DNA of 61,249 nucleotides from a virus. Both the position numbers and the translations under genes were made by a program. The stretch is taken from positions 1 through 61,249 of IMG/VR virus record IMGVR_UViG_3300050821_004166; one strand, given 5' to 3'. Below, piece after piece: positions 1-61,249 of the stretch. The notes below the pieces were generated by a model. It worked only from the letters and a program-made list of their open reading frames with translations. It had not been told where the DNA came from and ran no database searches. How positions within the stretch are numbered: the stretch's first letter is position 1; every line of letters starts with the position of its first letter.

Positions 1-97
1 CTCGCAGAGCGATGCAACAGCACATCCTGGGGCTTCAAATTAAGCTAGATGCTGCCATTGCCGCCGCCCAGCCCGTCCCGGCAGAGGGGGCGCAGGC
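1..97. repeat. Terminal direct repeat, copy 1 (identical to 61153-61249); circular-assembly overlap or terminal redundancy
   Basis: Base-by-base comparison: positions 1-97 equal 61153-61249. Confidence 0.95.
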
Positions 98-335
98 GGA
101 GTACGAACGTGGTGTAAAGGACACCACAAAATTCTATCTTGAGCGAGAGGACAAGCAGAAGGAAAGGTACGACGCACTATACGCCTTGAAACTTGGCGGT
201 AATCTTTTCGCGTTAGATTTGCAGAAACGGTTGGAACAAGTGAATGATAGCTTCAAATTAATCGTTGCCGCCATAGCATCTCCAGCTACGGCAGCGCCAG
301 CGGGCTATCCAAAGCCTACGAAGCCAGCGGAATGA
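12..335 (+). CDS. C-terminal part of the junction-spanning gene. Coiled-coil protein directly upstream of TerL; possible small terminase.
   Basis: The frame stays open back to position 3 and continues in frame from ATG 61077 through the repeat (..STRRAMQQH..). The real gene is 61077..61249 joined to 98..335, about 136 aa. Its stop overlaps the TerL start (ATGA at 332). Confidence 0.5.
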   Translation: MQQHILGLQIKLDAAIAAAQPVPAEGAQAEYERGVKDTTKFYLEREDKQKERYDALYALKLGGNLFALDLQKRLEQVNDSFKLIVAAIASPATAAPAGYPKPTKPAE

Positions 336-1051
336 GCACCGCGACCATCAGCGCCTATCGCTTCGACCGGGATACCCTCCTCCGTAGGCAGGACCTCACG
401 ATCGACTGTATGGCGCGTGGGATAGAGGGACCAGACGGCTACTGGATTCCCGGACCGTTGTTCTGGATGAACACACTAACGCAGACGTTCGACCCCCACT
501 ACCTCGACAAAGGCTTGGCGTCCCCACACCGCACCTTCCCGCAGATGCCCTATATGTCTTGGCTGTTCTCGAGGCTGCTCACGGAGTCGATCGTCTTCAT
601 TCCAAAAAGCCGCGAGATGCTTCTCTCCTGGGCGGTCATCGGCTATTGCGTGTGGCGTTGCCAGATTTTCCCCGGTACACAGGTGCTCGTTCAGTCCCAA
701 AAGCACGATAAGGCGTGCGAGCTGGTCAAAGGAACGGAACCTCCGGGGTACGCCTACACTCTCTACGACCGGCAAGACTCTTGGCTGAAGAAGCGATACC
801 CGCTGGCGATGCGAGCGGAAGACCTGCCGGCTGACAACGTGGTATGGGCGAACCATTCCGAGATTCAGGCGATCGGGAGAGGCGCCGACCAAGTTCGCCA
901 GTACCACCCCACCGTCTACGTGGTTGACGAGATGGCGTTCATGGAGGAAGCTGCGGCCAGCTTTGGGGCGGCTACGCCTGTAGCCAAGCAGATAATCTGC
1001 GTTAGCTCCGCTGGACCGGGTTTTTTCGGAGACATATGCAGCGAGGATTAG
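332..1051 (+). CDS. terL: Terminase large subunit, ATPase domain only (N-terminal half of a split TerL)
   Basis: 239 aa. P-loop-like FIPKSREMLLSW (deviant, no GK), Walker-B-like VYVVDEMAF, C-motif-like VSSAG. No nuclease domain in this ORF. Confidence 0.6.
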   Translation: MSTATISAYRFDRDTLLRRQDLTIDCMARGIEGPDGYWIPGPLFWMNTLTQTFDPHYLDKGLASPHRTFPQMPYMSWLFSRLLTESIVFIPKSREMLLSWAVIGYCVWRCQIFPGTQVLVQSQKHDKACELVKGTEPPGYAYTLYDRQDSWLKKRYPLAMRAEDLPADNVVWANHSEIQAIGRGADQVRQYHPTVYVVDEMAFMEEAAASFGAATPVAKQIICVSSAGPGFFGDICSED

Positions 1052-1884
1052 TTCAGATCGAGCAGCCGGGACCGATCATTCGGGTGTTTCCGATCCGAAC
1101 CAGCTATACGCCAAACGATGAGTGGGCGTTCGTTGGCTTCCCAACCTTGTTTCCCCCTGGCACGCGCCAAACTCCTGTTCACGTCAGCGTGGTTTTCAAA
1201 TGGTGCAGAGACCTGGCCGAGAAGATTGCTGCGTCCTGGCGCGATCATTACGACACCGTTCTAATCGGCGGGCCGGCCTACGGCGACTATGGCGACGACT
1301 TCACTCCAGGGATGTATATGAAGCACGGCTGCACCATCACAAGCCGCGGTTGCGTGAAGCATTGCGGTTGGTGCCCAGAGAAGGACCGTCCCCTCCGCGA
1401 GCTGGCCGTCAAACCAGGTTGGATAGTCCAGGATTCGAACCTCCTCGCGTGCTCTGAGCGCCACGTTCGCGCCGTCTTCGACATGCTCCGGGAGCAAGAT
1501 CGATCGATTACCTTCTCCGGAGGGCTCGACAAGCACTTCCTAAAGCCATGGCACAGGGAACTGTTCGACTCCATCAAGATCGAGGCTCTGTGGTTTGCCT
1601 GCGATATCACCAGCGACCTGCCCTGGCTCGAGAAGGCTGCCGAGATATTGGAAGGAATTCCGACCGAGAAGCTCCGCTGCTACACGATGATCGGCTATGA
1701 CGACGTGCCCGAGCCGTTAGATGTGGCCGAACATCGTATCGAGCGAGTCTTTGAACTGGGGTTCCTGCCGTTCTGCCAGCTATACAAGCCCGACGACTAC
1801 GTGAAGATTTACCCGCCAGAGTGGAAAGCCGTTCAACGCAAGTGGGCTAGGCCGGCAGCGTACCGACCTAGGAAGACGGCATGA
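1036..1884 (+). CDS. Radical SAM-type enzyme, function unknown
   Basis: 282 aa. Canonical CX3CX2C with an aromatic residue before the last Cys: SRGCVKHCGWCPE. Overlaps the TerL-N stop by 16 nt. Confidence 0.6.
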   Translation: MQRGLVQIEQPGPIIRVFPIRTSYTPNDEWAFVGFPTLFPPGTRQTPVHVSVVFKWCRDLAEKIAASWRDHYDTVLIGGPAYGDYGDDFTPGMYMKHGCTITSRGCVKHCGWCPEKDRPLRELAVKPGWIVQDSNLLACSERHVRAVFDMLREQDRSITFSGGLDKHFLKPWHRELFDSIKIEALWFACDITSDLPWLEKAAEILEGIPTEKLRCYTMIGYDDVPEPLDVAEHRIERVFELGFLPFCQLYKPDDYVKIYPPEWKAVQRKWARPAAYRPRKTA

Positions 1885-2189
1885 CTCCTCCCGCGGTCCT
1901 TATCGAGTGCCTCGACCAGTTCAAGAAGGATTGGCAATCCACGACCTGTCCCCACTGTGGCGCCGGCAAGTGGAAGAACTCCCCGTTCTGCAGGCGGTGT
2001 TCAATCCGGTTACAGCGCCGCAACCTGTTTGGACGTTTCAAACACTGGACCGGGCACCGCATGGCGGCAAACATCCGATTCTATTGCAAGGATGGATACC
2101 TCGAGCCGCTACACCGTTGGATAACCTGGTACGACCGCTGCCGAGACTATCTGGGAGTAAGCGAGAAAGATGCTCTCGTCGTTGACTGA
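1881..2189 (+). CDS. Small Cys-rich zinc-ribbon protein
   Basis: 102 aa. CPHCG...CRRC pairs. ATGA overlap with the upstream gene. Confidence 0.45.
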   Translation: MTPPAVLIECLDQFKKDWQSTTCPHCGAGKWKNSPFCRRCSIRLQRRNLFGRFKHWTGHRMAANIRFYCKDGYLEPLHRWITWYDRCRDYLGVSEKDALVVD

Positions 2190-2213
2190 GGTGGGACAAA
2201 CAGTCTTAGGCGT

Positions 2214-3218
2214 ATGGATGAGCACGTCACACTCGAGGAAGTTCGCCAGCCGATCGGCAATATGCCCATCATTCCGCGAGGGTGTGACGAATGGTCCGAA
2301 TCAGATCACGGCTATAAGATTCTCAAGGTCCACTATTCCGCTGACCCCGTGAAGACGCCGGCCTGGGCCGAAGCCCAAAAGAAGAAGAGCCCCTCCGAGA
2401 ACACCTTCCGCAGAGAATTCGAGATCGACCACTACGCCGGCAGTGGCGCGGCCATGTATCCGGAGTTTAGCCGCGGGTTGCATGTCGTCAGACCGTTTCC
2501 CATTCCGCACCTCTGGACTCGGTATATGTTCATCGACCCCCACAAACGCCGGCCGCACGCCTTCCTGTGGATGGCAGTGTCTCCGGATGGAGACCACTGG
2601 TACTACCGCGAGTATTGGCCGAGCCGCGTCTACGGCAAGAAGGGCGACACCCCGGAGGACGACAAGCTCTACAAAGTGGACGAATACGTTCAGGCACTCA
2701 AATACATGGAAGGGCCGGATATCAAACACTTCTCTTCCGGAGGCTTCGCGGACAACCAGGGGCAGACCGAGAAGATCCGCATACGGGTAATGGACACGCA
2801 CGGCAAAGCCATCTTCACCACCACGACCGCGGGGAAGGATGAACCGGAGACGTTCTGGGACCGCTACGAGAAACTTGGCATACGTTGCGTCGAGGCCATC
2901 AAGGATGTTGGTTCGGGACGTGACACGGTGGGGATGCGCCTACGACCGCGCAAGGTCATGCTTCCTTCAGGCGAAGCTGAAGAGGCAATCATTCATATAT
3001 TCGACACACTTCCGGAGTTGATTCTCGAGTTGCGGTCGGTGCGCTGGCCGAGTTTGACTCCGGAGCAGGCAGAGAAGATGGATCCCACCGACAAGGTAAT
3101 GCAGAAGCGATGCCACATGACAGACCTGATTCGGTACGGCGAGATGCTTGACCCCATTTACGTTGGACCGGCGCAGGCGCGGAGTCTCAATCCTGTGCAA
3201 GAGGGCATCAGCTATTAG
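2214..3218 (+). CDS. terL: Terminase large subunit, nuclease domain (C-terminal half of a split TerL)
   Basis: 334 aa. RNase-H-fold terminase nuclease pattern: YMFIDPHKRRPHAFLWMAV, IRVMDTHGK, HMTDLIRYG. Also the lid-like segment FRREFEIDH. Confidence 0.65.
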   Translation: MDEHVTLEEVRQPIGNMPIIPRGCDEWSESDHGYKILKVHYSADPVKTPAWAEAQKKKSPSENTFRREFEIDHYAGSGAAMYPEFSRGLHVVRPFPIPHLWTRYMFIDPHKRRPHAFLWMAVSPDGDHWYYREYWPSRVYGKKGDTPEDDKLYKVDEYVQALKYMEGPDIKHFSSGGFADNQGQTEKIRIRVMDTHGKAIFTTTTAGKDEPETFWDRYEKLGIRCVEAIKDVGSGRDTVGMRLRPRKVMLPSGEAEEAIIHIFDTLPELILELRSVRWPSLTPEQAEKMDPTDKVMQKRCHMTDLIRYGEMLDPIYVGPAQARSLNPVQEGISY

Positions 3219-3219
3219 A

Positions 3220-3250
3220 TTGACAATCCAGTGAGCCGGTAAGCTAGACT
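3220..3250 (+). promoter_or_regulatory. Promoter-like element, family 1: TTGACA-N19-TAGACT
   Basis: TTGACA at 3220-3225 and TAGACT at 3245-3250. Same hexamers and spacing as 13297 and 22384. Confidence 0.5.
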
Positions 3251-3275
3251 CTGGACGGTAGAGGAAACGGGACCT

Positions 3276-3312
3276 CGGCATCCTTCGGTTGTCATCGGTC
3301 CGAAGGTTGCCG
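3276..3312 (+). other. Strong RNA hairpin in the portal gene leader
   Basis: CGGCA-T-CCTTCGG (3276-3288) pairs with CCGAAGG-T-TGCCG (3300-3312): 12 bp with one T-T mismatch and an 11-nt loop. No U-tract follows. Confidence 0.55.
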
Positions 3313-3329
3313 GGGTGCGAATCTAAATT

Positions 3330-5582
3330 ATGGCAATATCTGCCACGGCAAACCCCACCGAGAACAAATCCGCTGCAATCATCGGCACCGGCCAAAGCGT
3401 GATGACCGAGGCCGAGCGCAACAAGGTCGAGGAAACCCGCGAGAGAATCAAAGCAAGCGCGGCGTGGCTTCACGACAACTTTTGGGGTGAGTGGCAGGAA
3501 GCCTTCCGGTCCTACGAAGTAAAGACAGAAAAGCTCATCTATCCTCCTGGGCATCCTCAAGCTGGCAAAGAAGACAAGACGCGCACGAACATCGCCATGC
3601 CTGAGATGTTTGTCGGAATTCGGAAGAAAGCCGTCCGCAAAAGCCGCCGGCCGCCCAACATCAACGTTCGATCTTCCGATCAGCAGATAGGAGACTTCCT
3701 GTCTCACATGGCAACCGTCCAGTGGGACCGCGCCGGCGAGCAGAAGTTTCAACGGCGCCACGTTCTTCAGGGAGACTTGTTCGGCATTTCGATCAAGCTC
3801 CATTACTACGACCAGGTAAGCCAGCAAAGGAGCTTGCGCTTCTCTACCGATAAGATTCTCAAAGAGCTTTACGTCAAGATCGATGAGAACGACAAGACGC
3901 GGAACAACTGGGTAATGGCCGATGAGGATGACAAGCGATCAGTCCGCGCTTCTCGGCTGAACGAGCAGGACCGGGCGAACGTGATGGCGAGTCTGGGACC
4001 GGAAGTGAGCCAGTCAAAGAACTTCACGCGGTTCGACGGGCCGGTATCGGAGTGGAAGTTTATCGGAGACTGGTACCCAGAGCCCGAGTTTGACGCCGTG
4101 CAGTCCTCGGCTTGGCATGTCTTCGAGGGCATCAAGGACGCGGAATGGCTGGCCTACATGGCAAGCCAGAAATTCACCGACCCGGAGACCGGCAAGAGGC
4201 GTCCGATCATCGATCCGAAGTTTCTAGGCGAACTCGAGACCTATCGCCCGCTGGACACCATGAACAAGAGCGAGGTATCGGGCGCCGAGCGCGACTTCAA
4301 GCAGACCCTTCGAGACGTCATCTTCAAAGCCCGGCCATCCTTCGAAGCGAGATTGATTCCTGGGCGCCGATACCTCATCCACCAGGACTACACCTTCCGC
4401 AAGGGGTTTTGCTGGATACGCTTCATCGGGAACGAGAAAGTGTTCTTAGGCGAGATGCCGCTACCATGGGACCTCGGCGGGCGCTATCCGATCAGCACCT
4501 ATTGTCCGATGCCGTCCCTGCTGCAAGGGATTGGAGACTCGACGGCACGCAAAGGCCGGCACCTCTGGAAGCTCCACAACATCACCGTCTCGCAGCGCAC
4601 CGACCTAATAACGAACGCTCTCAAGAAGCTGGTTGCGCTTCCCAAAGGCGCCGATATCCCTCCCGAGATCATGGATCTCGGCCTGTTCCGCGTCCTTTTC
4701 AGCGACAACTACCGGGAGATCATTGCGGCGTTCCAGGCTGCCGGCCCACAGGTTCCCGCGCAAGCGTTCGAGCAGGAAGCTGCAGTAATGCGAATGCTTC
4801 AAATGGTCGAGCCATCGATCATTGATTTCGGGGAGCAGAGCCAGGCTGTACCTAACACCGGAAAGACCGCAACCCTCGGCATCCTTCAGCAGCGATCGGC
4901 GGACGGCATCAGCGGGGACGAACTCGAATGCCTGAACGACTCGATTGCCGAGGAGACCGATATCAAGCTGTCCATGTGGCAGCAAGTCTTGAACGAGCGC
5001 GAACTAGAAAGCCTGGGACAGAGTTTCCAGAAGAGTACGTTCTGGACGATCAGCACCGCGGGCGGGCCGGATAAGCCTCGCCGGATGTTTGACGACCCCC
5101 TCGAGCTGCAGGTTGATTTCGAAGTAGAACCCGAGATGGGGAGCACGCTGGCGCTGGATGACGCCATCAAGAAGAACCAGGCGCAGGAGATTTACGATCG
5201 GGCAATCGCTGCCCCTACCGTTTGGAACGTCCAAGAGGCTGCTCTACGGTTGGCGCGTGCGTCCGGGGTGTCAGAGCCAGATAAGCTCATGGCACCCCCG
5301 CCGCCGCCACCGCCACCGCCACCGCCGCAAGAACCGAAGATTTCCGGCACGGTCAATGTCAAGGTCGAGGCCGACGTGGAAACGAGCCATGTCTTAATGT
5401 CCAAGGTGTTCGGCATTGCCCCGCCGTCTCCGCAAGACACGGAAGTAGCGCAGGCTCACGAAAAGCTCGCGGAAGCCGCAGAGAGCGCGAAGCACGCCAG
5501 ATTCCTCCTGGGAGAAGACCCGGACGAGGTTGCTGCCGCCCAAGGGAACAACGGCGCGGGTGGACCGCCGGCAGGCCCGTGA
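3330..5582 (+). CDS. Putative portal protein
   Basis: 750-aa ORF immediately after TerL; size and position are typical. Contains an 11-Pro run near the C-terminus. No motif-level proof. Confidence 0.55.
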   Translation: MAISATANPTENKSAAIIGTGQSVMTEAERNKVEETRERIKASAAWLHDNFWGEWQEAFRSYEVKTEKLIYPPGHPQAGKEDKTRTNIAMPEMFVGIRKKAVRKSRRPPNINVRSSDQQIGDFLSHMATVQWDRAGEQKFQRRHVLQGDLFGISIKLHYYDQVSQQRSLRFSTDKILKELYVKIDENDKTRNNWVMADEDDKRSVRASRLNEQDRANVMASLGPEVSQSKNFTRFDGPVSEWKFIGDWYPEPEFDAVQSSAWHVFEGIKDAEWLAYMASQKFTDPETGKRRPIIDPKFLGELETYRPLDTMNKSEVSGAERDFKQTLRDVIFKARPSFEARLIPGRRYLIHQDYTFRKGFCWIRFIGNEKVFLGEMPLPWDLGGRYPISTYCPMPSLLQGIGDSTARKGRHLWKLHNITVSQRTDLITNALKKLVALPKGADIPPEIMDLGLFRVLFSDNYREIIAAFQAAGPQVPAQAFEQEAAVMRMLQMVEPSIIDFGEQSQAVPNTGKTATLGILQQRSADGISGDELECLNDSIAEETDIKLSMWQQVLNERELESLGQSFQKSTFWTISTAGGPDKPRRMFDDPLELQVDFEVEPEMGSTLALDDAIKKNQAQEIYDRAIAAPTVWNVQEAALRLARASGVSEPDKLMAPPPPPPPPPPPQEPKISGTVNVKVEADVETSHVLMSKVFGIAPPSPQDTEVAQAHEKLAEAAESAKHARFLLGEDPDEVAAAQGNNGAGGPPAGP

Positions 5583-9693: not shown

Positions 9694-11383
9694 TGCTGCC
9701 GTGAAGTTTTGTGCCCTATTCCTGCTGGCCTTCCTCACATTGGCGAGTACCGCGACGGCCCAAGAAGTGGCTATCAGCGGGAACATCAAAGACGTTACCG
9801 GCACCAGCGTCATTTCGAACGCGCAGGTAGACTTCGAGCTTCAGAACTACGGCGGCCAGATCCCTCACGTTCTCTCGACGGGCACGATCATCGCCGTAAA
9901 GAAGACGTTCAAACCAGACTCGAGCGGGAATATCCACTGCGTAGGAGTCGGCTGCACGGATACCCTGCTGATGAATTCCGCGGTGCTGCCGTCTGGAACC
10001 TGGTACAGCATGTGCCTCATCAGCCAGGGACACACGCTGCGATGCAATAATTACATCATCAACCTGCCGTTTTCCTTGAACAACCTGCCGCCACCGCTGA
10101 ACGTCACCCCGCCGGCCGGCCCGAGCACGCTTGTCACGCAGTCCTACACCTGCCAAGTCTTCATTGCGTCCACAATTTGGACTTGCGTGCATAGATTCAA
10201 CGATGTGAACGTGGAAGCCTCGACCTACACCCTCCTCGGCGTGCGAATCTTCCCGGACACCATGACGATCACCGACCCCAACACGGTGACGTTCACCTGG
10301 CCGACCGCGCAAGCCGGCACCGCAGTTATCTTCCACGCCGCACCGCTGACCTTCGCCATCACTCAGCCGAACGCCGTGCTGCAGAATCCAACGGGTTCGC
10401 AGGTAATCTCGACATGGCCTCTGCTGATTTCCTCTCCAACGTCGTTTAGCTTCCTCCTCGGGCTTCCGACCAAGACCGATCCAGTCACGCCGGCGCCCGG
10501 CGAGGCCTGGGTGAACCTCGGGCTGCTGAAGTTTGAGGACAATGCCGTTTCGCCTGCGAAGCATGTGGTGTCGACGTCACTTCCTGGAACCTGCTCTGCC
10601 GGCCAAGTCGTCAATGCAATCACCGCGGACGCCGTTCCGGGGTGTATCCCGTTCTCGCTTGCTCTCACGGCGCTGACTACTTTGGGCGACACTCTGAGCG
10701 TAAACTCCACGCCGGCCTTAACTCGAATTCCCGGAAACACGACCGCGACAAAACTATTTTTCACGCAGACCGGGACTGGCTCTGTTTCAGCTTTGCCGGG
10801 GTGGAATCCGATCGTTGCCGGCGACGTGCCTCAGATCAACCTTGCAACTTCCGGAGCTGGAGGAGTAGGCGGGTTGCTGCCGATTGCTAATACCTGTCCA
10901 GGGACGACTGGCGCAAGCTCAACGACGTTCCTTCGAGGAGACTGCACTTGGAGCAATCCTTCAGGCGGGGTGGTGGCGGTTTTTGCTAACCAAACCATCT
11001 CAGGACAAAGCATTCCCGCAAGTACGCCAACGGCAGTCGTCGCAAAAGCGATTACGATGCCGGCGAGTGGCTGCCCATGTCGCGTGTTTATGTCCTACTC
11101 GGTCTGGTCCACTACGATTACAAGCGGGACCGGTTACGATCTTTGGATTTCGGATGGAACAAACACGATGGCCCCTTTCAGCACCGGCGCATCGAACGGG
11201 TCGGGTGGGTCCACCGGGATGAGCTATTCAGGATTCAGCCCTGTAACTTACGCCAACGGTGTAACGGTGACTTTCACGCTGATGGAAGAAGGGGACCACA
11301 GCATCATCATCCAGGCCGGAAAGATCGTTGCCGGCAGTGTTGCTCCGTGGACTTTGCAGCTTGCGGTCTTCCAGAGCAATTAA
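9689..11383 (+). CDS. Ser/Thr/Gly/Asn-rich beta-type protein with an N-terminal signal peptide (fiber-like or exported)
   Basis: The internal start gives MLAAVKFCALFLLAFLTLASTATA/QE; GTG 9701 is an alternative start. The ORF-track start at 9572 precedes the promoter-like element. Confidence 0.5.
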   Translation: MLAAVKFCALFLLAFLTLASTATAQEVAISGNIKDVTGTSVISNAQVDFELQNYGGQIPHVLSTGTIIAVKKTFKPDSSGNIHCVGVGCTDTLLMNSAVLPSGTWYSMCLISQGHTLRCNNYIINLPFSLNNLPPPLNVTPPAGPSTLVTQSYTCQVFIASTIWTCVHRFNDVNVEASTYTLLGVRIFPDTMTITDPNTVTFTWPTAQAGTAVIFHAAPLTFAITQPNAVLQNPTGSQVISTWPLLISSPTSFSFLLGLPTKTDPVTPAPGEAWVNLGLLKFEDNAVSPAKHVVSTSLPGTCSAGQVVNAITADAVPGCIPFSLALTALTTLGDTLSVNSTPALTRIPGNTTATKLFFTQTGTGSVSALPGWNPIVAGDVPQINLATSGAGGVGGLLPIANTCPGTTGASSTTFLRGDCTWSNPSGGVVAVFANQTISGQSIPASTPTAVVAKAITMPASGCPCRVFMSYSVWSTTITSGTGYDLWISDGTNTMAPFSTGASNGSGGSTGMSYSGFSPVTYANGVTVTFTLMEEGDHSIIIQAGKIVAGSVAPWTLQLAVFQSN

Positions 11384-11392
11384 TTGAGGAGT

Positions 11393-12817
11393 GTGGTGTT
11401 GAAAAGATTCGCCATATTGTTTTTGTTGTTGCTGCCGAACGTGCTTATCGGCCAAACCTCGCATGGCCGCATCAGTTCCGATCGGATAACGAACAAAACA
11501 ACCATCACGATCACGGGCGCGACTCCGGACGTATCCGTGGGAAACGTCTTCCAGACGGCTAACAGCGGAACGACGGTCATCACGAACTTCCTGAATGGCG
11601 TGGACACGCAGCTCATTACGATTGTCTGCGGGGATGCGAACACCTCCATTCTTAGCAATGTCAACATTCTGGTGCCAAGCGGAGGCTTCTCTTGCACGGT
11701 CAAGACGACGATCTCCTTCATCTACATCGCCCCGGCCCTTCAATGGATTCAAACCGCGAACGCAGCAGGAGGCAGTTTTGCTTTCCCGGTTGAGCCTCCT
11801 TTTACCGTCCTCGCCGGGCCCGGAGCGAACTCCATTACCGGAATCAATGACGGCGTAGCTTTAGCTTCGTCCTCCGGTATCTCCACCTCGCAGTCCATCA
11901 CGCTCACTCCCGGAAGCACACACGACTGGATGTTCTTGGCGCTGTCTAACGACATAAACATTAACCCCGGAGGGGTTACGACTGTTTCAGGCGGCGGAAC
12001 TTGGACAAACATCTTCAGCACCTCAAACAACGGAGGCTTATGGTCCCAGACTCTATCCAGCTCTAACCCCATCACCACGCAAGGGAACACCATAAACCCA
12101 ACAAATTGGGCAGGGATGCTGTTCTCCCTGGCTCTTAAACCGGCCACGACTCCTACAATCGTGCAGCAGCCTTCAGTCACCAGTGGAGGCATACCCAACG
12201 GAAGTACGACCAGTTTCACCGGCAACACCACGAACGGAGACGCCATTCTGGTCATTCTGATAGGTGGCGTGGTTTCTAGCGTGAATACCGATTACATCAC
12301 CGACAGTGAAGGGAACCTGTACACGCCGCTTGGATTTGCGACGAACACGGCCGGCTTCGGTGAAGTAGCTCTCGTTTTCCTCTCCGCAAACATCGCTGGC
12401 GGCACTCACGACGTAGTGAAATTCCATACGCAGGGTTCAGGAGTAAGCGGCAGTTTCCAAGCCTTGGAAGTGAACAACCTGGTCCTCGCAAATGGGTTGC
12501 CCACCTTCCGAGCAGTACAACCGGGAGACTTGCCCGCTGGCTACGTTAAATTTATTGCTGGCGGCGGGTTGGCACTTACTACTGCCTTAATCGCTTCAGG
12601 GGCTTGCGGTGCGACCGTGACCGCAGTGGCTACTGGCGTACAGACTACGGATACGATCGAGATGGCGTTCCAAAATGCAGTGACAGCAGCGGACGCAGGC
12701 TTGCTCATCCTTCACAAATGGCCGACAAACGGCGCTGTCAACTTTGCATATTGCAACCCGACCGCTGGTTCGATCACTCCGAATCCTATATCGATAAGCT
12801 GGAGCGTGCATCGATGA
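11393..12817 (+). CDS. Ser/Thr/Gly/Asn-rich protein with a signal-peptide-like N-terminus
   Basis: N-terminus ..VVLKRFAILFLLLLPNVLIGQTSHG. GAGGAG lies upstream. The start is ambiguous: TTG 11384, GTG 11393 or GTG 11396. Confidence 0.45.
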   Translation: MVLKRFAILFLLLLPNVLIGQTSHGRISSDRITNKTTITITGATPDVSVGNVFQTANSGTTVITNFLNGVDTQLITIVCGDANTSILSNVNILVPSGGFSCTVKTTISFIYIAPALQWIQTANAAGGSFAFPVEPPFTVLAGPGANSITGINDGVALASSSGISTSQSITLTPGSTHDWMFLALSNDININPGGVTTVSGGGTWTNIFSTSNNGGLWSQTLSSSNPITTQGNTINPTNWAGMLFSLALKPATTPTIVQQPSVTSGGIPNGSTTSFTGNTTNGDAILVILIGGVVSSVNTDYITDSEGNLYTPLGFATNTAGFGEVALVFLSANIAGGTHDVVKFHTQGSGVSGSFQALEVNNLVLANGLPTFRAVQPGDLPAGYVKFIAGGGLALTTALIASGACGATVTAVATGVQTTDTIEMAFQNAVTAADAGLLILHKWPTNGAVNFAYCNPTAGSITPNPISISWSVHR

Positions 12818-25992: not shown

Positions 25993-27000
25993 ATGCCCTT
26001 CTTCAGATCGGTGAAGCAGGTACGGCCCGCGCAAAAGCCGCGGGGAAGCGTATCGCAGTTCATCACCGAGAACTTCCGGCATTTCAATGCTCGAGAACTC
26101 CGGGAAGCCGCCGAGGCCTACAAGCGGCTGGTCGATTCAGGCGGCAAGATGTTTGTAACCGTTGCCGGCGCAATGTCCACCGGAGAACTCGGAATCTCTC
26201 TGGCGAAGATGATTCGAGAGGAGAAGGTTCACGCCATTTGCTGCACGGGCGCCAACCTCGAGGAAGACATTTTCAACCTGGTAGCACACTCTAAATACAA
26301 GGTAATTGCAGGCTACCGGCAGTTGGACAACGACGACGAGAAGAGCATCCATGACGCCGATATGTCGCGTGTGACCGACACGCTCATTCCGGACAAGGCG
26401 GCCATGGACACCGTTTCGAAAGCCATCTTCGATATCTGGAAGCGGGCCGACAAGGAGGGCGAACGGTCGTTCCCGCACGAATACGTCTACCAGTTGTTCC
26501 ATGAGAAGACCTTAGACTTTGACGCCGACCCAGAAGACAGTTGGGTTCTCGCCGCGCACCAGAAGAACCTGCCGCTGTTTGTTCCAGGATGGGAGGATTC
26601 GACGCTAGGGAACATGCTCGCGGGGATGCGGATAAAGGGCGAGATCACTAAGCCGATCGTGAAGGACGGCATCGATTACATGATGGCTCTGGCGAAGTGG
26701 TACGAAGCGGAAAGCGGCGGGAAGGGCGTAGGGTTCTTCCAGATCGGAGGTGGAATTTCCGGCGACTTCTCGATATGCGTGGTTCCACTGCTGAAACTGG
26801 ACTTGAAAAAGACCGTCCCGTTCTGGGCCTACTTCTGCCAGATCAGTGATTCACTTGCCAGCTATGGAGGGTATTCCGGAGCGCCACCGAACGAAAAGAT
26901 CACTTGGGCGAAGATCGACAAGAGCACGCCAACATTTATGATTCAATCGGACGCTTCGATCGTTGCACCGCTTATTTTTGCCTACGTTCTCGAGGAATGA
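25993..27000 (+). CDS. Deoxyhypusine synthase-like (DHS / homospermidine-synthase family) enzyme
   Basis: VTVAGAMSTGELG..AICCTGANLEEDIFN matches the DHS signature TTAGGVEEDLIK. C-terminal NEKITWAKI...DASIVAPLIFAYV matches EAVSWGKI...DASLVFPLLV, including the catalytic Lys. Confidence 0.85.
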   Translation: MPFFRSVKQVRPAQKPRGSVSQFITENFRHFNARELREAAEAYKRLVDSGGKMFVTVAGAMSTGELGISLAKMIREEKVHAICCTGANLEEDIFNLVAHSKYKVIAGYRQLDNDDEKSIHDADMSRVTDTLIPDKAAMDTVSKAIFDIWKRADKEGERSFPHEYVYQLFHEKTLDFDADPEDSWVLAAHQKNLPLFVPGWEDSTLGNMLAGMRIKGEITKPIVKDGIDYMMALAKWYEAESGGKGVGFFQIGGGISGDFSICVVPLLKLDLKKTVPFWAYFCQISDSLASYGGYSGAPPNEKITWAKIDKSTPTFMIQSDASIVAPLIFAYVLEE

Positions 27001-27001
27001 T

Positions 27002-30000
27002 GTGCCGCCGACCGACACCGAGACGACAGAAACTCAGACGCAAGACCCGCTAGATGAGTACCTCGCGCTAAGGGATAAGACTGCGAAAAAGAAGTCTCCG
27101 AAGGAAGACCCAATCGCAGCCTACTTAGCTGCGCGGGAAGCAGACACTAAAGCCACCGACAAGCGATCGGCTGAAGTAGAAGCCAAAGCCGCAGCAACGC
27201 CGGCGGCGGTTCCCGTTGTTTCCCAGAAGATGGAGGAGTCTCCTGCCGGCAAGGGATTCGCAGCAGCAGAGACCGCAGGACAGAAGATATTCGGTGAGCA
27301 GCCGACCCCGGCAACGGTTGCAGCTCGAGGACCGTCATCTCTATTCCAGACGACTCCTCCTGCTCCCCCGCCTCTCCCTCCAGAAACAGTAACCGAGCCG
27401 GTCAAGAGCATGGAGCAGATCGGGCGGGAGTCTCCGTTTGGAAAAGGGACGGCGCCGGCAGAGCTTCCGAAAGATGTTGCCGACCTGAAAGCCTCGATCG
27501 AGGATTCCTCGACCAAGATCAAAGGCACGCAGAACAGGTATCCGAGCGGCATTCCGCAGGAAATCTACCCCTGGTACAAGGACGAGGTTGCCAATCACAA
27601 CCAGATGGTGGCGAGGTTTAACGACGCCATCAAGAAGCTGCCGCCAAGCCAGCGAGCCGAACAGAAGCAAACCCCTCTAAGCACCGCGCCGTTAAGTCTT
27701 TCGCAGCAAGCCGATCGGGTTGGTAAGCCGATGGTCCCCTTGACCGGTCCGCAGAAGCCGATAGACCTGACGAAATACCCGCGGAACATCTTCACAAACG
27801 ACTTGGCTATTCCCGAACAGACTCCCGAGCAGGTGAAAGCTCAGAACGCAGCCGAGGACGCGCAGCGAGCGCAAGACGATGCGTTGTCTCGAGGGAGGCC
27901 GGTATCCAGGACAGGCGTTCGCGGACTGCCGGTAACAAAGAAAGAGCTTGATGACGAGAAAGCGGGGATGGATGAGATCACGCGGGCACTCACGACGGGT
28001 TCGCGCAAGCTGCCGATTCCAGCGTTCACCGGTTTTCAGAAAGGGACAGGTTTGCCGACCGGCGCTAGGGTGTCCAGTGTTGGCGAACTCGAGGACCTGA
28101 CCGACGAATATCTCAGCCGTCCGGAGATCCCGAAGACTCGAGCTCAAGCGATGGCCGCGGGCATAACCTCGGACGCGGTGAAAACGCTGAATGATATGTT
28201 CCTGTCCCCTGTGGGCATCGTGGCGACGGGGACCGGGCTAGTGGCGGCGAACGCGCTGGCGAAAGCTGGACAAGCAGGAAAGGAAGCTCTCGAGCTAGGC
28301 GCCGAGTACCAGGCGATGAAGCGGGCCGGCGCGACCGCTGCGGAGCTTCTGGTACAGGAGGGAAAAATCCATCAGGCCATGCTGTCAGTGGCTAAAGCGC
28401 AAGGCGTGCTAAAGACCGCTGCAAGAGCCGGGCAAGTCGGTGGCGCGGCATTCGGCGCACAGGGCGCGAACGGGGTAATCGATGGAATCAAGGAGCAAGA
28501 CACTTCGAAGATTCTCGGCGGGTTAGGGCAGATCATACTTGCCGGCGCCGGCGAGGCTGCACTTCACCGGGCGGGCGGGCTCGAGTCTGCGGTCGGTGGA
28601 TCCGTCGAAGCGGAAGCGCACCGGCGATACCAAGAATCGTATAAACCTCCAGGGGACGACGACGACGACGAGCCACCGGGCGGGGGACCTCCTCCGGACG
28701 TACACGCGAAGCTGCTCGAGGACGAGCTGCACCGGGCGAAGGCCGAACATTCGGCCAAAATCCTGGAAGATGCGGCTGCAGAGACCAGAAAAGCGGCTGG
28801 AATCGACACAGAGCCACCAGGAGAGCCGGAAAAACCTGCAAAGCTCAAGGTGCCAGTACGCGCCAAAAAGCCCGCCCTGCCTGCCCCTGTTGAGCCAGTT
28901 GGCACAAAAGAAGAGCCGGAATCCTCAAGTGAGGGAGAAAAACAGGAAAAAGCGGTTATTCACACGTTCCCAGGCGAAGAAGGAACTCAGTACGAAGTAG
29001 CGAAGGTCGATGGAGGGTTTTCGGTTTCTCTGCGTGACACGGAAGCCGGCGAGGTATTTCCGTCGCACCGCATTTACAAGACTGAAGAACAAGCGGTAGC
29101 TGCAGCAAAGGGCTTCGGAGAAAAATCGACGGGCGAAGAGGCTAAAAGAAAAGCCGCTGAACCTGAAGCGAAGGAACCAGAACTTTCCGGCGAAGATGCC
29201 GTCACGGCCAAAATCTATCAGGATGCGATCGACCACGACAACGAACTCCTCGCAAACGAAAAGCTAACTTGGGAGAAGCGCGAGAGGATTGTCGAGCATC
29301 GAGACAACTATCAAAAGGACTTGGACAAGATTCAAGGGAGGCGGGTTGAGGATGTCGGACCTCCAGAGTCGAAGGGAGAGCGCCGAGCGATCGAACCGGA
29401 AGCGGAAGGGAGGTTAGAGGAAGCCAAGAGAAAGCGTAAAGCGAATCAAATTGAATTCGAGAAGAAGGCCGGGCAACCAGAGGAAGAAGCCGCGCCGATA
29501 AAGCCAGGCGACAAGATCAAGATGCGCGGTGGCATGAGGCGCCGAAGCATCATGTCAGGCCTGCCGTTAACGGACGAGCCTAGACACCAGCCTGAAGCCA
29601 CAGAGGCGAGCGCACAGCCGACCCCACCGCCGAGCGACCGCTGGACCGCCGACCGCGGTGCGATGCCGGGAGAACCCGAGCTATTCCTGGACGTTCCGGA
29701 GGACGGCGACACCGAGAAGGCCAAGGCTGCGATCATTCAGCGCGATCGGAAAGCGGGCCGTGCCACATGGGAACTCGTTCACATGGAGGGCGGCAAGCCA
29801 AAGAGCGGAGGGATGTTCAGCACGCCGCAAGAAGCCGCAGCTCGCGCCGAGAAACTGTACTCGCCACCAGAAAAGGAAGAACAGCCAGAGCACGTCCACA
29901 AAGAAGGCGACCGCGTAACGTGGACGGGCCCAAAGGGCGAGAAACTCAGTGGACAGATTCGGTCGATCGAACCACATCAGAAAACTGGACCGGATGACCT

Positions 30001-33000
30001 GCGGAAGCCGTTAGCGTCGATCACCGTCGATCAGCAAGCAGTGATGCGGATTCCTGGACGCAAGGGCGGCGTGCCGATCGGGCGCGTCGAGATGGTCCCT
30101 CTCGAGAAACTCAGTCCTGAAGGCGCACCGGAGAAGGCCGAGGCTGCTACCGAATCTGAAAAGAAGCCGGTCGTTCCGTTCTCAAAGCCTCGCCAGGAGG
30201 ACGAAAGAGAACGAGCAAGAGGAATCATTGAGGACTTCGTTGCTAAGTGGGATAGAGAATTCAAAGAGTGGCAAGAGAGCGGTGGACGTGGAGAACCTCC
30301 TCCAAAACCTTTCCAACTAGAGCATCCTCCGGAAGATATTGGCGTTTTCCAGTACATCAAGACGTTGCCAAAACACGTGCAGGAGTATGCCCGCAAGTTT
30401 TACAAAGCCTACAGAGATGAGGGAGTGGCGGCTGGACAGGAGGTTGACCCGAGAGACTATGGGATATCTGGCGAAGAAGCGGAGGAACTCGACGGCATAC
30501 TAAAGCAGCTCACCAAGCCAGGGAAAGCCGCGCCAGAGGAAGAGCCACCGGAGACAGAACCGGAACCAGAGAAGGCTGCCGAACCTGAAAAAAAAGCGGT
30601 CGTTCCGTTCTCGAAGCCAGCAGAAGCGGAGGCGCCGGCTAAGTTTCAAGAAGGCGACTTAGTACGGCTGACTGACGAACCGCACAAAGCTGGAACACTC
30701 ACACGTTTGAGTTTGAGCAAGACTACGGCGGTAGTCAAACTCGAAAACGGAAACACCGTCTATGTTCATCCAGACAGAATCGAACTGCGTGGGAAGCCAG
30801 CGGAGAAACAGAGGTACGTGGTTTCGAAGGCTGGAATGAAGCCGGGCATGTGGAAGATCATAGATACCACAGACGGCACTACAGTCCGTTCAGGGCTCGA
30901 GAGCAAGGCCGGCGCGGAAGCGATTGCTGCCGGCATGAAGTCTGAGGATCAACATATCTCAGGAGCAACGCCGTCAGGGGCAATCACTCCTCGCGTTCCA
31001 CTATCAACGGTAAAGCCGCAAAACAGACCGCATATGGTTGTCCGTGAGGTACGCGACCGCGACGACAAATTGCTTGGATACGAGTATTTCCCATACGACG
31101 GAACGCCAGAGGACGCGCTTGCGAAAGCAGAGTTAGTCACCACGCAGATGTGGGAGAAGTACCCGGACGCCTCCAACATGGGCAGCCGTATTCTCGCAAC
31201 AGGTAAAGACGGCAAACCGCTTTACGTTATGTCTCCCAATTTGCAACACGTCGCAGAGATGGGGACGCCGACAGCGAACTACATCCAGACTGGTGAAGGT
31301 GAACCGCCGGCTGAAATGAAGGCCAGTTACGAGGCAGCAAAGAAAGCAGGCGATGAAGCCGCCGGTAAGGCTCTTTGGTGGAGAAAGCCTCTTCCGAAGC
31401 TAGACGCAGACACCGAATACAAACTCCTGAAATTGATACACCCGAAGGAGGGACAGGTCGGAGCTGCCGAGCTAAGGAGAAGGTACAGAATTAACTACGG
31501 AGAGACGATAGATCAGGGCATTGTTGCTCAGTTCCTTAAAGAGCAAGAAGGATTGACACAAACTGGCGCAGGTGCCAAACTCCCGACCAAGAGCTTTGCT
31601 CCGCAGGTAATCGCTGACTCAAGCGGAAAATGGAGCGGGAACGCAGTCAGCTTTCCTACGGAACAGGAAGCCCAGGATTACGTCAACGACCTTAAAAGCC
31701 GTTGGATGGCCGTCCGTGACACTCGCGTAGTTGAGCAGGACGTTCCGGCTACTCATTCCTTTGCGAATGGCAAGCTGGAAATAGTCAAACCGGAGGAAGC
31801 CGATGCCGCCACCGCCGATCAAGCCGCCGACCGAGAAGGATCTGGACGAGATAGTGGTACAGCCGAGCCTGCTCGAGTCGGTCAAGAGCCATTGGAAAGA
31901 GAATCTTCCGAAGCTATACAAGGCGTACCAGAAGAGCGGGAAGCTGCAGGAGAAGGCGAAGAGGGCGGTGCAGGAGGCGAAGTATCTGGCCGCGAGCCTG
32001 GTGGCGCAGGGACAGGAATGGTCCGAGGCGTGGGTGACAGCCTCGAGGGAAAAGATGTACCTGGAACCAGAGGAAAGCCTGGACGACCAGGAATCAGCCG
32101 AGTAAACCCGTCAGACGGTCCGCAAGGCAATTTCTACCACATCACGGAATCCGACCAGCTAGGCCAGGCCGGCCTAAAGCAGAAGTTCAAAGACAACGTA
32201 ACAGCGATCAAGCTGCTGCAAAAGCTCGAAGCCGAGAACCGCCTCGCCACCACTGCGGAGCAAGCCGTTCTTGTGAAGTACGTCGGATGGGGCGGGTTAT
32301 CGGCTGTCTTCAAACCATGGGAAGACCGGCAATGGACGAAAGAATCCGATGAGCTTAGGGACCTGCTTCCTAGCGCCGAGTGGGAGGCAGCCAGCGGCAG
32401 CACGCAGTTTGCCCATTACACCTCGCTCGAAGTGATTCAAGGGATGTGGAGCGCACTCGAGCGCATGGGGTTCACTGGCGGGCGCGTTCTCGAGGATGCT
32501 GCCGGCGTGGGGCACTTCATGGGTGGCGCCCCTCTGGATGTTGCAGCGAAATCGAAGTGGGCGGCGGTCGAGATCGACCCTCTCTCAGCACGTATCACAC
32601 AGCAGCTCTACCAGCCGGTCAAGGTCTTCAACAGCCCCTTTGAGAAGGTGGCGTTCCCGAATAACTTCTTTGACGTGAACATCACGAACGTACCATTCTC
32701 CACGACCTCGCCGGCAGACCCCAAGTACGACAAGTATGGCTTGAACCTGCACAACTATTTCATCGTCCGCGGACTCGACCTGCTACGGCCGGGCGGGATT
32801 ATGGCCGTTATCACTTCCCGCGGGACGATGGATTCAGGCGGCAAGCACCGTGAACTGATGGCCGACCGCGCCGACCTCCTGGATGCCGTGCGGCTGCCCA
32901 AGACAGCGTTCAAAGGGAACGCCAATACCGAAGTGGTTGCGGACGTCCTGATATTCCGGAAGCGGGCGCCGGGAGACCCCAAGGGCGGCGAGGCCTTCCA

Positions 33001-56783: not shown

Positions 56784-57299
56784 ATGAGAAAACAGCGTAA
56801 CGCAGCAAAACCGAAGAAACGTAAGTGGGGAGCTAGAACCGGGACCGGTAAGAAGAAGCGGAAGCTATACACTCCTCGCACAAAGCAGTTAGCCGCGGTG
56901 CAGCTATTCGTCTCCGGAAGCAAGTACGCCGAGATCAGCAGGAAGCTAGGCCTCGACCGCGAAACCGTTGTCCGCATCGTCACCCAAGAAGAAGTTCATG
57001 CCATGGTCGAGGGATTCCGGGAAGCCGTCCTCAAGATGGTTCCGAACGCCCTGGTAGCTCTGGCACGATTGATAGACATTGGAGACCGGACCGCGGTTAT
57101 CGAGTGCCTGTACGGCGCCCGCGTCTTAATCGATCGGCACGAAATTGCTCCCGAAGCCGAGGAACCTGTGCGAACCTACGACTCTACCAGGGTGCTGTTC
57201 TTCGGAAAATTCGGTAGGTGGCCGAGGGATGAGGAGTTAAAGGCGTTCGATAAGACGATTCCGACAAAGCCGATCGTCAAAGGAGAGTTTACGAATTGA
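56784..57299 (+). CDS. HTH protein with a basic N-terminus; candidate small terminase subunit or regulator
   Basis: LFVSGSKYAEISRKLGLDRETVVRIV..EEVHAMVEGFREAVLKMV..ALVALARLI resembles HTH-type TerS N-terminal regions. Confidence 0.4.
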   Translation: MRKQRNAAKPKKRKWGARTGTGKKKRKLYTPRTKQLAAVQLFVSGSKYAEISRKLGLDRETVVRIVTQEEVHAMVEGFREAVLKMVPNALVALARLIDIGDRTAVIECLYGARVLIDRHEIAPEAEEPVRTYDSTRVLFFGKFGRWPRDEELKAFDKTIPTKPIVKGEFTN

Positions 57300-59807: not shown

Positions 59808-59882
59808 AGCAAGAAGCGCTCTTGATTGGACATTCGGCTTGAAGGTGAACTAGCGGGGCGGGGCGCAACAGGGAAGCGAGGG

Positions 59883-60563
59883 ATGAGCTTGAGACTGTTA
59901 GACCTGTTTTGCGGGCGGTGGGGTTGGTCGAGGGCGTTTGCCGCGCGAAATTGGGAATGCGACGGCATCGACTTGGTTTCTTCTCCGCTTCCTGCTGCCA
60001 ATGCTCACTTTACATGCGCCGACGTTTTGGATTTAACTGTGGCAATCGTGAAGCGATTCGAGCCTGACTTCATCGTGGCATCGCCGCCATGCGATGAATT
60101 CGCCTGCTTTCAAATGAAGCACTTCCGCAAAGACCCTCCTTACCCGATGAAGGGGATTGAACTCTTCAATCACACACGGGCACTTTGCGAGTTGTCTGGA
60201 ATTCCGCATGTAATTGAAAACGTAAGAGCCGCCCAGGAGTTCGTCGGGAAAGCAGATGGACACGCCGGGAGTTTTTATCTGTGGGGTAATGCGGTGCCGC
60301 CGATCCTGCCTAGAGTCTACAAGGCAAAATGGACAGCGAATGTGCGTCACGGTCGGACAGCGCCAGGTAACTTCGCACCGGAACTTAATCTGCCAAAGAG
60401 TGAGCGTAAACCTTTGCTGGCGGTGATTCCTCTTGAGCTAGCCAACTGCGTAGCCGATTATGCCGAGAGGATTCTTGAGCAGAAAGCACGAGCACGAAGT
60501 ACTGAAGCGGTAAGCCTCGATCGACCGGGCAAGAGCGATTCGTTGCCGGGAGGGACATCGTGA
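59883..60563 (+). CDS. Small DNA cytosine-C5 methyltransferase-like protein
   Basis: LLDLFCGRWGW (motif I, degenerate), ASPPCDEF (motif IV, PC), VIENV (motif VI). Confidence 0.6.
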   Translation: MSLRLLDLFCGRWGWSRAFAARNWECDGIDLVSSPLPAANAHFTCADVLDLTVAIVKRFEPDFIVASPPCDEFACFQMKHFRKDPPYPMKGIELFNHTRALCELSGIPHVIENVRAAQEFVGKADGHAGSFYLWGNAVPPILPRVYKAKWTANVRHGRTAPGNFAPELNLPKSERKPLLAVIPLELANCVADYAERILEQKARARSTEAVSLDRPGKSDSLPGGTS

Positions 60564-61076: not shown

Positions 61077-61249
61077 ATGGATGAGCAAATTCGCAGGGAT
61101 GAAGCACAAGTTATGTTTGATATTTTCGAGAACTGGCCTACTACGGCTTCTACTCGCAGAGCGATGCAACAGCACATCCTGGGGCTTCAAATTAAGCTAG
61201 ATGCTGCCATTGCCGCCGCCCAGCCCGTCCCGGCAGAGGGGGCGCAGGC
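61077..61249 (+). CDS. N-terminal part of the junction-spanning gene (continues at 98..335)
   Basis: ATG 61077 is in frame with ATG 61164, which is the repeat-copy equivalent of position 12: MDEQIRRDEAQVMFDIFENWPTTASTRRAMQQ... Confidence 0.5.
   Translation, partial: MDEQIRRDEAQVMFDIFENWPTTASTRRAMQQHILGLQIKLDAAIAAAQPVPAEGAQ
61153..61249. repeat. Terminal direct repeat, copy 2
   Basis: Identical to 1-97. Confidence 0.95.

Follow-up and report, generated by a model that had tools for sequence, protein, structure and literature searches.

To our knowledge, every large terminase subunit (TerL) that has been characterized biochemically or structurally is a single chain, in which lid, ATPase core and nuclease communicate within one polypeptide. 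Annotators of actinobacteriophages label terminases by 'ATPase domain' and by 'nuclease domain' separately, so that split annotations are probably already present in databases, unanalyzed. Our literature search for a two-gene TerL found only intron-split cases and one remark. In Jug and crAss-like phages terL is split by group I introns and restored by splicing (PMC12880540), and the cultured Parabacteroides phage phiPDS1 is described in one sentence as having 'two large terminase genes', possibly an artefact or the effect of an alternative codon table (PMC10773633). A 2026 review of the packaging machinery does not contain the word 'split'. The TerL of cyanophage Mic1 carries inteins (PMC7156551). 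Outside packaging, an essential enzyme of Aeromonas phage Aeh1 was fragmented by the endonuclease mobE, and the resulting pair NrdA-a/NrdA-b is reassembled without splicing (PMC3045599). Here we describe the terL locus of a soil phage, IMG/VR record IMGVR_UViG_3300050821_004166, positions 1 to 61,249 ('the window' denotes this whole stretch of 61,249 nt). In the window, as in many of its relatives, the ATPase and the nuclease of TerL do not share a polypeptide. They are encoded by two open reading frames (ORFs), terL-N (332..1051, + strand, 239 aa) and terL-C (2214..3218, + strand, 334 aa), with a radical-SAM-like gene and a small Zn-ribbon gene between them.

We consider it likely, with a probability of about three in four, that the phage makes two TerL chains that are never joined, that the split was inherited, and that the genes now lying between the halves moved into a gap that already existed and were not the cause of the split. 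A first-pass annotation made from the window's letters had located the same four ORFs and offered three explanations: a two-chain terminase, RNA or protein splicing of an intervening element, or a mobile cassette that had invaded terL. The evidence given below supports the first.

The two terL genes and the break point between them

Neither half matched Pfam or NCBIfam, and tblastn of terL-N against 50,697 phage records gave no match. However, terL-N is matched by phrog_5989, 'terminase large subunit' (E=6e-4), and a profile of the N-halves matches residues 220-275 of T4 gp17, across Walker B and the C-motif. Its AlphaFold model, built on the family alignment, has a pLDDT of 93.8 and a pTM of 0.91. 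When this model was compared with the PDB by Foldseek, T4 gp17 came first (E=3.9e-9, TMq 0.64-0.70), followed by the P74-26, T7, Sf6 and D6E TerLs; the phi29 and phi28 ATPases are also on the list. Fold and sequence profile thus both identify a TerL-type ASCE/RecA-like ATPase domain.

The motifs quoted in the first-pass annotation, which had called terL-N the ATPase part and terL-C the lid and RNase-H nuclease part, are present in both ORFs and occupy invariant or nearly invariant columns of the family alignments. In terL-N, Walker B and the catalytic glutamate lie in VVDEMAF (nt 920-940), where VVDE ends in D199/E200 (nt 926-931), and the C-motif (coupling motif) is SSA (nt 1004-1012, S225/S226) within VSSAG (nt 1001-1015). 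In the alignment to gp17, VYVVD199-E200-MAF falls on MIYID255-E256-CAF and SSAGPGFF (S225-S226-A) on T285-T287-PNGLNHF. E200 and S225 are invariant among the N-halves, and D199 and S226 nearly so. A classical Walker A of the form GxxxxGK[ST] is absent. The predicted P-loop position, where the model has strand 87-92 and then helix 97-112, reads KSREMLLS (nt 605-628), with K92/S93 invariant and R94 nearly so. The first-pass annotation correctly reported the missing GK[ST], which does not seem to be an anomaly. The Walker A of lambda gpA is itself a deviant form, KSA-R79-VGYS (Table 1 of PMC6379665), and KSREMLLS shows the same K-S......S pattern; by this comparison it appears to be a known deviant type and not a defect. 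The chain stops ~13 residues beyond the C-motif, where the ATPase core ends.

terL-C was aligned by tblastn with the C-terminal parts of annotated TerL genes in 28 phages, including those of HMO-2011 type, Rhizobium RHph_N3 and Bacillus PK1. A sequence-profile search of the PDB gave no match for terL-C, and among the PDB comparisons fold comparison alone identified it. The AlphaFold model (pLDDT 81.8, likewise built on the family alignment) had the D6E TerL as its first Foldseek match (E=1.9e-10, over 270 aligned columns); the nuclease domain of P22 TerL, 4dkw, was matched with a TMt of 0.74. By fold, residues ~100-320 form the RNase-H-type nuclease. Its conserved acidic residues are D108 (nt 2535-2537, in FIDPH), D194 (nt 2793-2795, in VMDTHGK) and D304 (nt 3123-3125, in TDLIRY); D108 and D304 are invariant and D194 is nearly invariant in the C-half family alignments. 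Note that one C-half-type protein, P0031 (635 aa), carries an intein (Hint_2/Intein_splicing) right after the third catalytic Asp motif (HLTDC/L).

Upstream of the nuclease, terL-C begins with what looks like the remnant of a flexible linker (residues 1-20, unconserved up to P21). About 75 conserved residues follow, which align with the ATPase-proximal part of fused TerLs. This lid-like segment (~residues 21-95, nt 2274-2498) has an invariant E68 in QE.EID and is modeled as a beta-hairpin (24-39) and two helices (49-58 and 62-69). The lid of T4 gp17 comprises residues 314-357 (PMC6379665), and from these coordinates and the gp17 alignment we infer that residues 21-95 of terL-C are the ATPase lid. 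This assignment is consistent with the 270 Foldseek columns on the full-length D6E TerL, which are more than the nuclease domain alone would give.

When the two window proteins are concatenated they align colinearly with the fused TerLs P0010 (577 aa, 100% coverage), P0012, P0015 and others, and the junction (…GDICSED followed by MDEHVTLEEVRQPIGNMPIIPRGC…) falls in a stretch of ~20 residues that is unconserved among the fused proteins. terL-N ends at about gp17 residue 300, one helix past the C-motif and shortly before the start of the lid at 314. As the ~75 lid-like residues begin terL-C, the break separates the ATPase core from the lid and does not lie at the hinge between ATPase and nuclease. 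The first-pass annotation had proposed that an uninterrupted terL in related phages would define the borders of an insertion. Such genes were found, but they place the break in a variable linker, and the split in the relatives predates the cargo. Another full-length TerL of the family, P0013 (775 aa), has an N-terminal Terminase_2 (TerS) domain fused to it.

For the lambda, T4, P74-26 and Sf6 enzymes it has been proposed that the arginine of Walker A toggles between two partners, a glutamate of the lid and the catalytic one (PMC6379665). Because the lid residues and the toggle have been described there, we propose an analogous arrangement acting in trans. Chain 1 (332-1051) would be the RecA-like ATPase core, with Walker A, Walker B and C-motif, and chain 2 (2214-3218) would supply the lid subdomain and the RNase-H-type nuclease. 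The two would be made separately, most likely from a common transcript, and would then associate non-covalently, the lid of chain 2 closing and regulating the ATP site of chain 1. On the portal, this heterodimer would serve as the protomer of TerL. R94, E200 and E68 are the candidate toggle residues.

Alternatively, the chains might work independently, chain 1 by itself as a phi29-gp16-like packaging ATPase and chain 2 as a free-standing nuclease used only for cutting. In the phi29-type motor an ATPase lacking a nuclease can package DNA, phi29 and phi28 ATPases are among the Foldseek matches, and loci that have only an N-half exist. Nevertheless we regard independent action as quite improbable. 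Chain 2 retains the ~75 conserved residues before its nuclease, including the invariant E68, the two genes stay neighbors in an unchanged order throughout the family, and in characterized TerLs the lid is needed for closure of the ATP site and for coupling (PMC6379665).

Both halves appear to have kept their function. The catalytic residues are invariant or nearly so, and there is no other TerL to take over: 97 nt are identical at the two window ends (1-97 = 61153-61249), the contig is therefore a circularly closed, complete genome of ~61,152 bp, and in it the hidden Markov models (HMMs) of the N-half and C-half families each match once, while the other large ORFs have no terminase match. Hence neither finding that would have undone the first-pass assignment, a half failing to match TerL or a full-length TerL elsewhere in the genome, was made. 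If terL were a pseudogene in decay, in a phage that is defective or was mis-assembled, it would have a parallel in phiPDS1, whose split TerL was itself suspected to be an artefact of assembly or codon table (PMC10773633). That explanation is barely tenable here. The split architecture recurs in independent JGI, Logan and ENA assemblies, and thus is not an assembly artefact. Stand-alone halves make up dozens of 50%-identity clusters, both models are confident compact units, and the complete circular genome has an intact structural module with a major capsid protein of SU10 type.

Restoration of a single polypeptide

All long ORFs of the window lie on the + strand, and the terL region is tightly packed. 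The radical-SAM-like gene (1036..1884, + strand, 282 aa) overlaps the end of terL-N by 16 nt, the Zn-ribbon gene (1881..2189, + strand, 102 aa) begins in an ATGA overlap, and a 24-nt spacer precedes terL-C. Between the terL halves, a scan with consensus sequences gave neither a sigma-70-like promoter nor a convincing terminator. Given this, and as the radical-SAM-like ORF starts within terL-N behind a GGAG 4 nt upstream of its ATG, the four genes from terL-N through terL-C look co-transcribed. Expression of the cargo genes probably goes along with that of the late packaging operon.

A single TerL could in principle be restored from such a locus if the RNA were spliced, the proteins trans-spliced, or the interval crossed by ribosomal bypass or by read-through of stop codons. 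Group I introns that split terL, with splicing confirmed by transcript reads, are the precedent in Jug and crAss-like phages (PMC12880540), and the Hint domains of P0031 show that inteins occur in this family. In the window, however, a search with Rfam 15 in E-value mode over positions 1-4000, both strands, gave 0 matches at E up to 1, and the interval between the halves is fully coding, being filled by two conserved ORFs. Nor does the locus resemble an intein or split intein of the 'fractured genes' kind (PMC2677866): none of the four ORFs contains a Pfam Hint or intein domain, and no intein block opens the C-half. Moreover, terL-N ends with the ATPase core, which leaves no room for an N-intein of ~100 aa. 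Bypass and read-through fare no better. The ORFs of terL-N and terL-C are separated by 1162 nt, are in different frames (332 mod 3 = 2; 2214 mod 3 = 0) and have many stop codons as well as the two ORFs between them. No tRNA gene was found in the genome, and so there is no suppressor tRNA.

Relatives of the window gave a further argument for restoration. We drew 139 related loci from collections of viral sequences, metagenomes and genomes and scanned all of their stop-to-stop ORFs with the HMMs of both halves; 'gap' below is the domain-to-domain distance between the N-half and C-half matches. In all seven short-gap loci of the close clades (L029, L003, L005, L006, L007, L013/L023 and L070) the halves are in the same frame, with 1-3 stop codons of mixed type between them. 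In the five more distant short-gap loci (L071, L095, L106, L127 and L135) they are out of frame. Descent from continuous genes that acquired nonsense mutations fits the in-frame short gaps of the close clades better than selection for read-through does. Programmed read-through was considered on the strength of these gaps and rejected, since the stops are mixed (up to three in frame), none of the five distant loci is in frame and the window itself is unreadable. Self-splicing introns are likewise implausible in the relatives, whose gaps of 84-120 nt are too short to hold them. Taken together, these observations leave restoration of one polypeptide with next to no probability, and the splicing put forward in the first-pass annotation is not supported.

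Origin of the split and cargo of the gap

Every member of the window's own clade is split. The gap varies widely: 84 nt in L013/L023, 87 nt in L005, 120 nt in L006, 225 nt in L007, 384 nt in L003, 702 nt in L104, 1.2 kb in the window, 1.65 kb in L001 and L017, 3.9 kb in L012/L105 and 4.5 kb in L010/L102. The gaps of L005, L006, L013/L023 and L029 together span 45-120 nt, and those of L005, L006 and L023 contain no gene at all. Further loci have 0.6-4.5 kb filled with other genes. A crude neighbour-joining (NJ) tree built from both domains, concatenated, has only split members in the window's clade, and the short-gap loci branch outside the subclade that has the Zn-ribbon gene. Thus relatives that are nearer to the window than any fused TerL (L005, L006 and L023) are already split with gaps of 84-120 nt. 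As the nearest relatives are split without the window's cargo and with differing cargo, the present cargo is not the cause of the split.

The wider family gives the same picture of a common trait. Among the 120 listed of 330 N-half homologs, almost all are either 195-265 aa long or ~350 aa with an N-terminal helix-turn-helix (HTH), and two are of ~600 aa. The C-half was searched exhaustively against 1.84 billion cluster representatives (50%-identity clusters); of the best 150 matches, 50 are C-halves that stand alone, 57 are fused TerLs and 37 are fragments. Close relatives fall in metagenome-assembled genomes (MAGs) of Terriglobia/Acidobacteriota, including Candidatus Angelobacter, and more distant ones (Alphaproteobacteria, KSB1 and others) have ordinary fused TerLs of 450-560 aa. 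The N and C genes keep their linkage and order across the family. On the 132.7-kb contig WNGI01000009.1 (L020/L021) a truncated C-half, which covers only profile positions 3-217, has an N-half ~2.3 kb upstream of it on the opposite strand; this is probably a rearranged, decaying prophage.

One split could be traced to its likely mechanism. L029 sits inside a fused clade (L008, L028, L030 and L062), yet it is split. Its linker (800-850) has two in-frame TAA codons five codons apart and then a new ATG, and reads ELP*ESNR*RTIQM-EVPHGC (asterisks are stops) where P0014 has ELPQDADRSRTIHI-EVPRGC. To judge from these sequences, L029 arose by fission through point mutation alone and independently of the window's clade. 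The split would therefore be an inherited trait of the window's clade which, in the wider family, appears to have arisen or reverted repeatedly.

The radical-SAM-like assignment of ORF 1036-1884 rests on phrog_9298, 'radical SAM domain protein' (E=3.2e-14), and on a CxxxCxxC motif (nt 1351-1374) whose C106/C110/C113 are invariant among the homologs; Pfam (including Radical_SAM), NCBIfam and a PDB profile search gave no match. The family has 1789 homologs, of which the best 120 are all at least 63% identical, far above the conservation of the TerL halves. Homologs of 71-75% identity occur in phages with an unrelated TerL, where the gene lies upstream of the packaging genes, outside terL, and without a Zn-ribbon gene. 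Among the window's relatives, the gene is found in the gap only of the window and the near-identical L001/L002/L009, a single tip of the NJ tree (window/L001). This restriction indicates that the cargo entered a gap that already existed, and the family appears to behave as a mobile accessory gene. In L140, an unrelated phage that carries a radical SAM homolog, an Acb2/Tad1-hairpin gene (11305-11523; anti-CBASS/anti-Thoeris sponge-like) shares the small-gene block upstream of a Terminase_3 TerL, a context that may point to the radical SAM gene moving together with counter-defence cargo.

The Zn-ribbon call for ORF 1881-2189 is based on a CxxC...CxxC motif (nt 1947-2000) and weak Pfam Zn-ribbon matches below threshold. 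Homologs lie in the gap of L001, L017 and L102/L010 and correspond to one NJ subclade (window, L001, L017 and L102); L017 and L102 have an unrelated 67-aa ORF at the position of the radical SAM gene. The Zn-ribbon gene thus seems to be older at its gap position than the radical SAM gene. We rejected it as a universal partner of split TerLs, since it occurs in one subclade only and not with the radical SAM gene elsewhere. A Cys-rich ORF in the gap of L003 shows marginal similarity to it (pairwise E=0.002). The simplest history suggested by these distributions is that the two-gene terL came first and that its spacer then gained the Zn-ribbon gene, with the radical SAM gene as the latest arrival.

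Across the family the gap also holds genes for HNH and endonuclease VII nucleases, SAM-dependent methyltransferases, an RNA ligase, a histidine phosphatase, a glycosyltransferase and a DUF3800 protein. A family of ~210 aa, for which Pfam and PHROG gave no match, is found inside the terL gap of nine sister-clade loci (L121:9748-10383, L014, L107, L111, L113, L119, L122, L123 and L124). The space between the terL genes thus appears to behave as an insertion hot spot for accessory and mobile genes.

The clearest trace of such mobility comes from L001/L002, which are the same phage species as the window. L001 has 0 nucleotide differences from the window in 280-1934 and 2379-4416, a span that takes in the N-half and the radical SAM gene as well as over 1 kb of the putative portal gene. 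All 93 differences lie within window positions 1935-2378 (444 nt), a tract that is 20-31% divergent and flanks an indel. Window positions 2165-2223 (59 nt), bounded by blastn blocks 280-2164 and 2224-4416 to L001, are replaced in L001/L002 by 506 nt with a free-standing HNH endonuclease gene (phrog_99, E=2.6e-24). That gene lies at the Zn-ribbon/C-half junction and its stop codon overlaps the start codon of terL-C. The window, which has no endonuclease gene between the terL pieces, therefore carries the empty site of a presence/absence polymorphism. An HNH indel with a 444-nt divergent tract in otherwise identical sequence shows that mobile DNA is active at the site, and has what appears to be the signature of homing-type insertion with co-conversion of the flanks.

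The first-pass annotation had taken the 1.16 kb between the halves to be an insertion that split terL, possibly a mobile cassette. That a cassette of radical SAM and Zn-ribbon genes invaded an intact terL would account for the cargo lying exactly at the junction, and it draws on the horizontal mobility of the radical SAM gene, found with unrelated TerLs, and on the precedent of Aeh1 nrdA, fragmented by mobE (PMC3045599). But the nearest outgroups of the clade (L006, L003, L005, L023 and L007) are split without the cassette, the radical SAM gene sits at one tip with an unrelated ORF in its place in L017 and L102, the two cargo genes do not travel together elsewhere, and L029 was split by nonsense mutations alone. 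We therefore hold this origin to be very unlikely. The earlier suggestion of mobile DNA was apt for the site, given the HNH gene and the co-conversion-like tract of L001, but not for the origin of the split.

A related possibility is that a homing endonuclease or another mobile insertion made the original split of the clade and has since been lost or replaced, so that the present cargo genes are later tenants. In its favor are the HNH or endonuclease VII genes that several lineages (L001, L121 and L128) have in the gap, the homing-like tract at this very site and the NrdA-a/NrdA-b precedent of Aeh1. However, the one split that is demonstrably recent, that of L029, came about by in-frame stops without insertion, and the seven in-frame loci out of seven among the close-clade short gaps look more like ORFs with nonsense mutations than like insertion scars. 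On balance we think an element since lost is unlikely.

Several points weigh against two separate chains in an inherited, pre-existing gap. The association of the chains is read from conservation alone, and the assignment of C-half residues 21-95 as a lid is indirect. The NJ tree is without support values. A mobile element since lost could have made the ancestral split of the clade, as the data clear only the present cargo. Finally, seven Terriglobia MAG loci (L055, L056, L058, L060, L061, L063 and L067) have an N-half with no C-half detected within 5-8 kb on either side, in the case of L056 on a contig of 2.6 Mb. Hence the N and C genes need not always adjoin, and the N-half might sometimes function without a C-half partner. 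Inserts of very large size, a C-half moved elsewhere, or elements that are satellite-like or domesticated could account for these loci; the ORFs near them gave nothing informative when annotated with PHROGs.

Neighboring genes, significance and known systems

Directly downstream of terL-C lies an ORF of 750 aa (3330..5582, + strand) that is probably the portal gene by its position and size. Pfam and PHROG gave no match for it; in L003, L005, L006 and L007 the gene after the C-half is an ORF of 713-728 aa. Directly 5' of terL-N is a 107-aa ORF (12-335) that overlaps it by ATGA (332-335) and has a weak match to an Rz-like spanin PHROG (E=0.03). A TerS-like HTH protein with weak HTH_23/HTH_28 matches is encoded at 56784..57299 (+ strand), ~4.7 kb upstream of terL-N across the circle junction, with DNA methyltransferases and other ORFs in between (the block 56784-57299, 57296-58750 and 59826-60563 is the TerS-like HTH and DNA methyltransferase region). 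Homologous HTH ORFs lie directly upstream of the N-half in L056, L057 and L007, and in proteins of ~350 aa (P0037, P0038, P0076 and others) an HTH of these families is joined to the N-half. A giant ORF of 4275 aa (26963-39790) has an Eco57I-type N6-adenine methyltransferase region at ~aa 1870-2000 and SNF2-helicase/Helicase_C regions at ~aa 2780-3070; it recalls, in what we take to be a resemblance, large injected anti-restriction proteins such as P1 DarB. PADLOC gave no match.

A two-gene TerL will be surprising to packaging specialists, and has practical consequences. A large natural family split between core and lid is a ready-made complementation system for studying the coupling of ATP hydrolysis to DNA translocation and cutting by the lid and the 'arginine toggle'. 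As terL is a standard phage marker, halves of ~240 and ~330 aa without a Pfam match will escape the tools used for virus detection and completeness or be wrongly scored by them, above all in Acidobacteriota phages from soil. The gap between the halves is a defined, variable, co-transcribed cargo site in which new phage accessory genes can be sought, the very widespread radical SAM-like family being one candidate.

More speculatively, and with little weight attached, the split may be more than a neutral accident and make the packaging motor modular, with exchangeable ATPase-core and lid-nuclease chains whose interface completes the ATP site in trans. If so, the expressed gap would be a privileged landing pad for cargo and homing endonucleases, and Avs-type sensors of the intact TerL fold might be evaded. 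The chromosomal Terriglobia elements with only an HTH and an N-half (L055-L063 and L067) could then be satellites, which would bring their own recognition and ATPase chain and borrow the lid-nuclease chain of a helper phage.

Compared with T4 gp17, D6E, P74-26, Sf6 gp2 and lambda gpA, the window proteins have the same folds and set of catalytic motifs: an ASCE ATPase with Walker B plus glutamate and a C-motif, a putative lid, and a nuclease of RNase-H type that has three acidic residues. As in canonical phages the probable portal gene adjoins, by position only, and the Walker A shares the K-S......S form of lambda gpA. Unlike canonical TerLs, the window enzyme comprises two genes and two polypeptides broken between ATPase core and lid, and in its family up to 4.5 kb of unrelated genes lie between the halves. 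It resembles the intron- and intein-bearing terL genes of Jug, crAss-like phages and Mic1 in having several terL ORFs with mobile endonucleases nearby, but differs in its incompatible frames and in matching no intron model or Hint domain. phiPDS1 likewise has TerL domains in two coding sequences, a likeness by description only; here a family-wide analysis is given, together with cargo and mapping of the break point. In cos phages, HNH endonucleases of the HK97 gp74 type adjoin the terminase genes (PMC3592412). L001 has an HNH gene in a comparable place, whereas the window has none; presence or absence between near-identical genomes and divergent flanks would make that gene a homing element and not the fixed packaging cofactor of the gp74 type.

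By analogy, NrdA-a/NrdA-b of Aeh1 seems the closest mechanistic precedent. In both cases an essential phage enzyme is in pieces, and a free-standing endonuclease lies between the pieces, here in some relatives (the HNH gene of L001). In Aeh1 the endonuclease made the split and supplied interaction tails, whereas here the split exists without an insert and there are no conserved tails, the N-terminus of the C-half being unconserved up to P21; assembly of the TerL chains is the reading we infer. Relative to all of these systems, what appears to be new, from sequence and predicted structure, is a clade-wide and recurrently evolved two-gene TerL, broken between core and lid, whose gap serves as a hot spot for cargo and homing elements.

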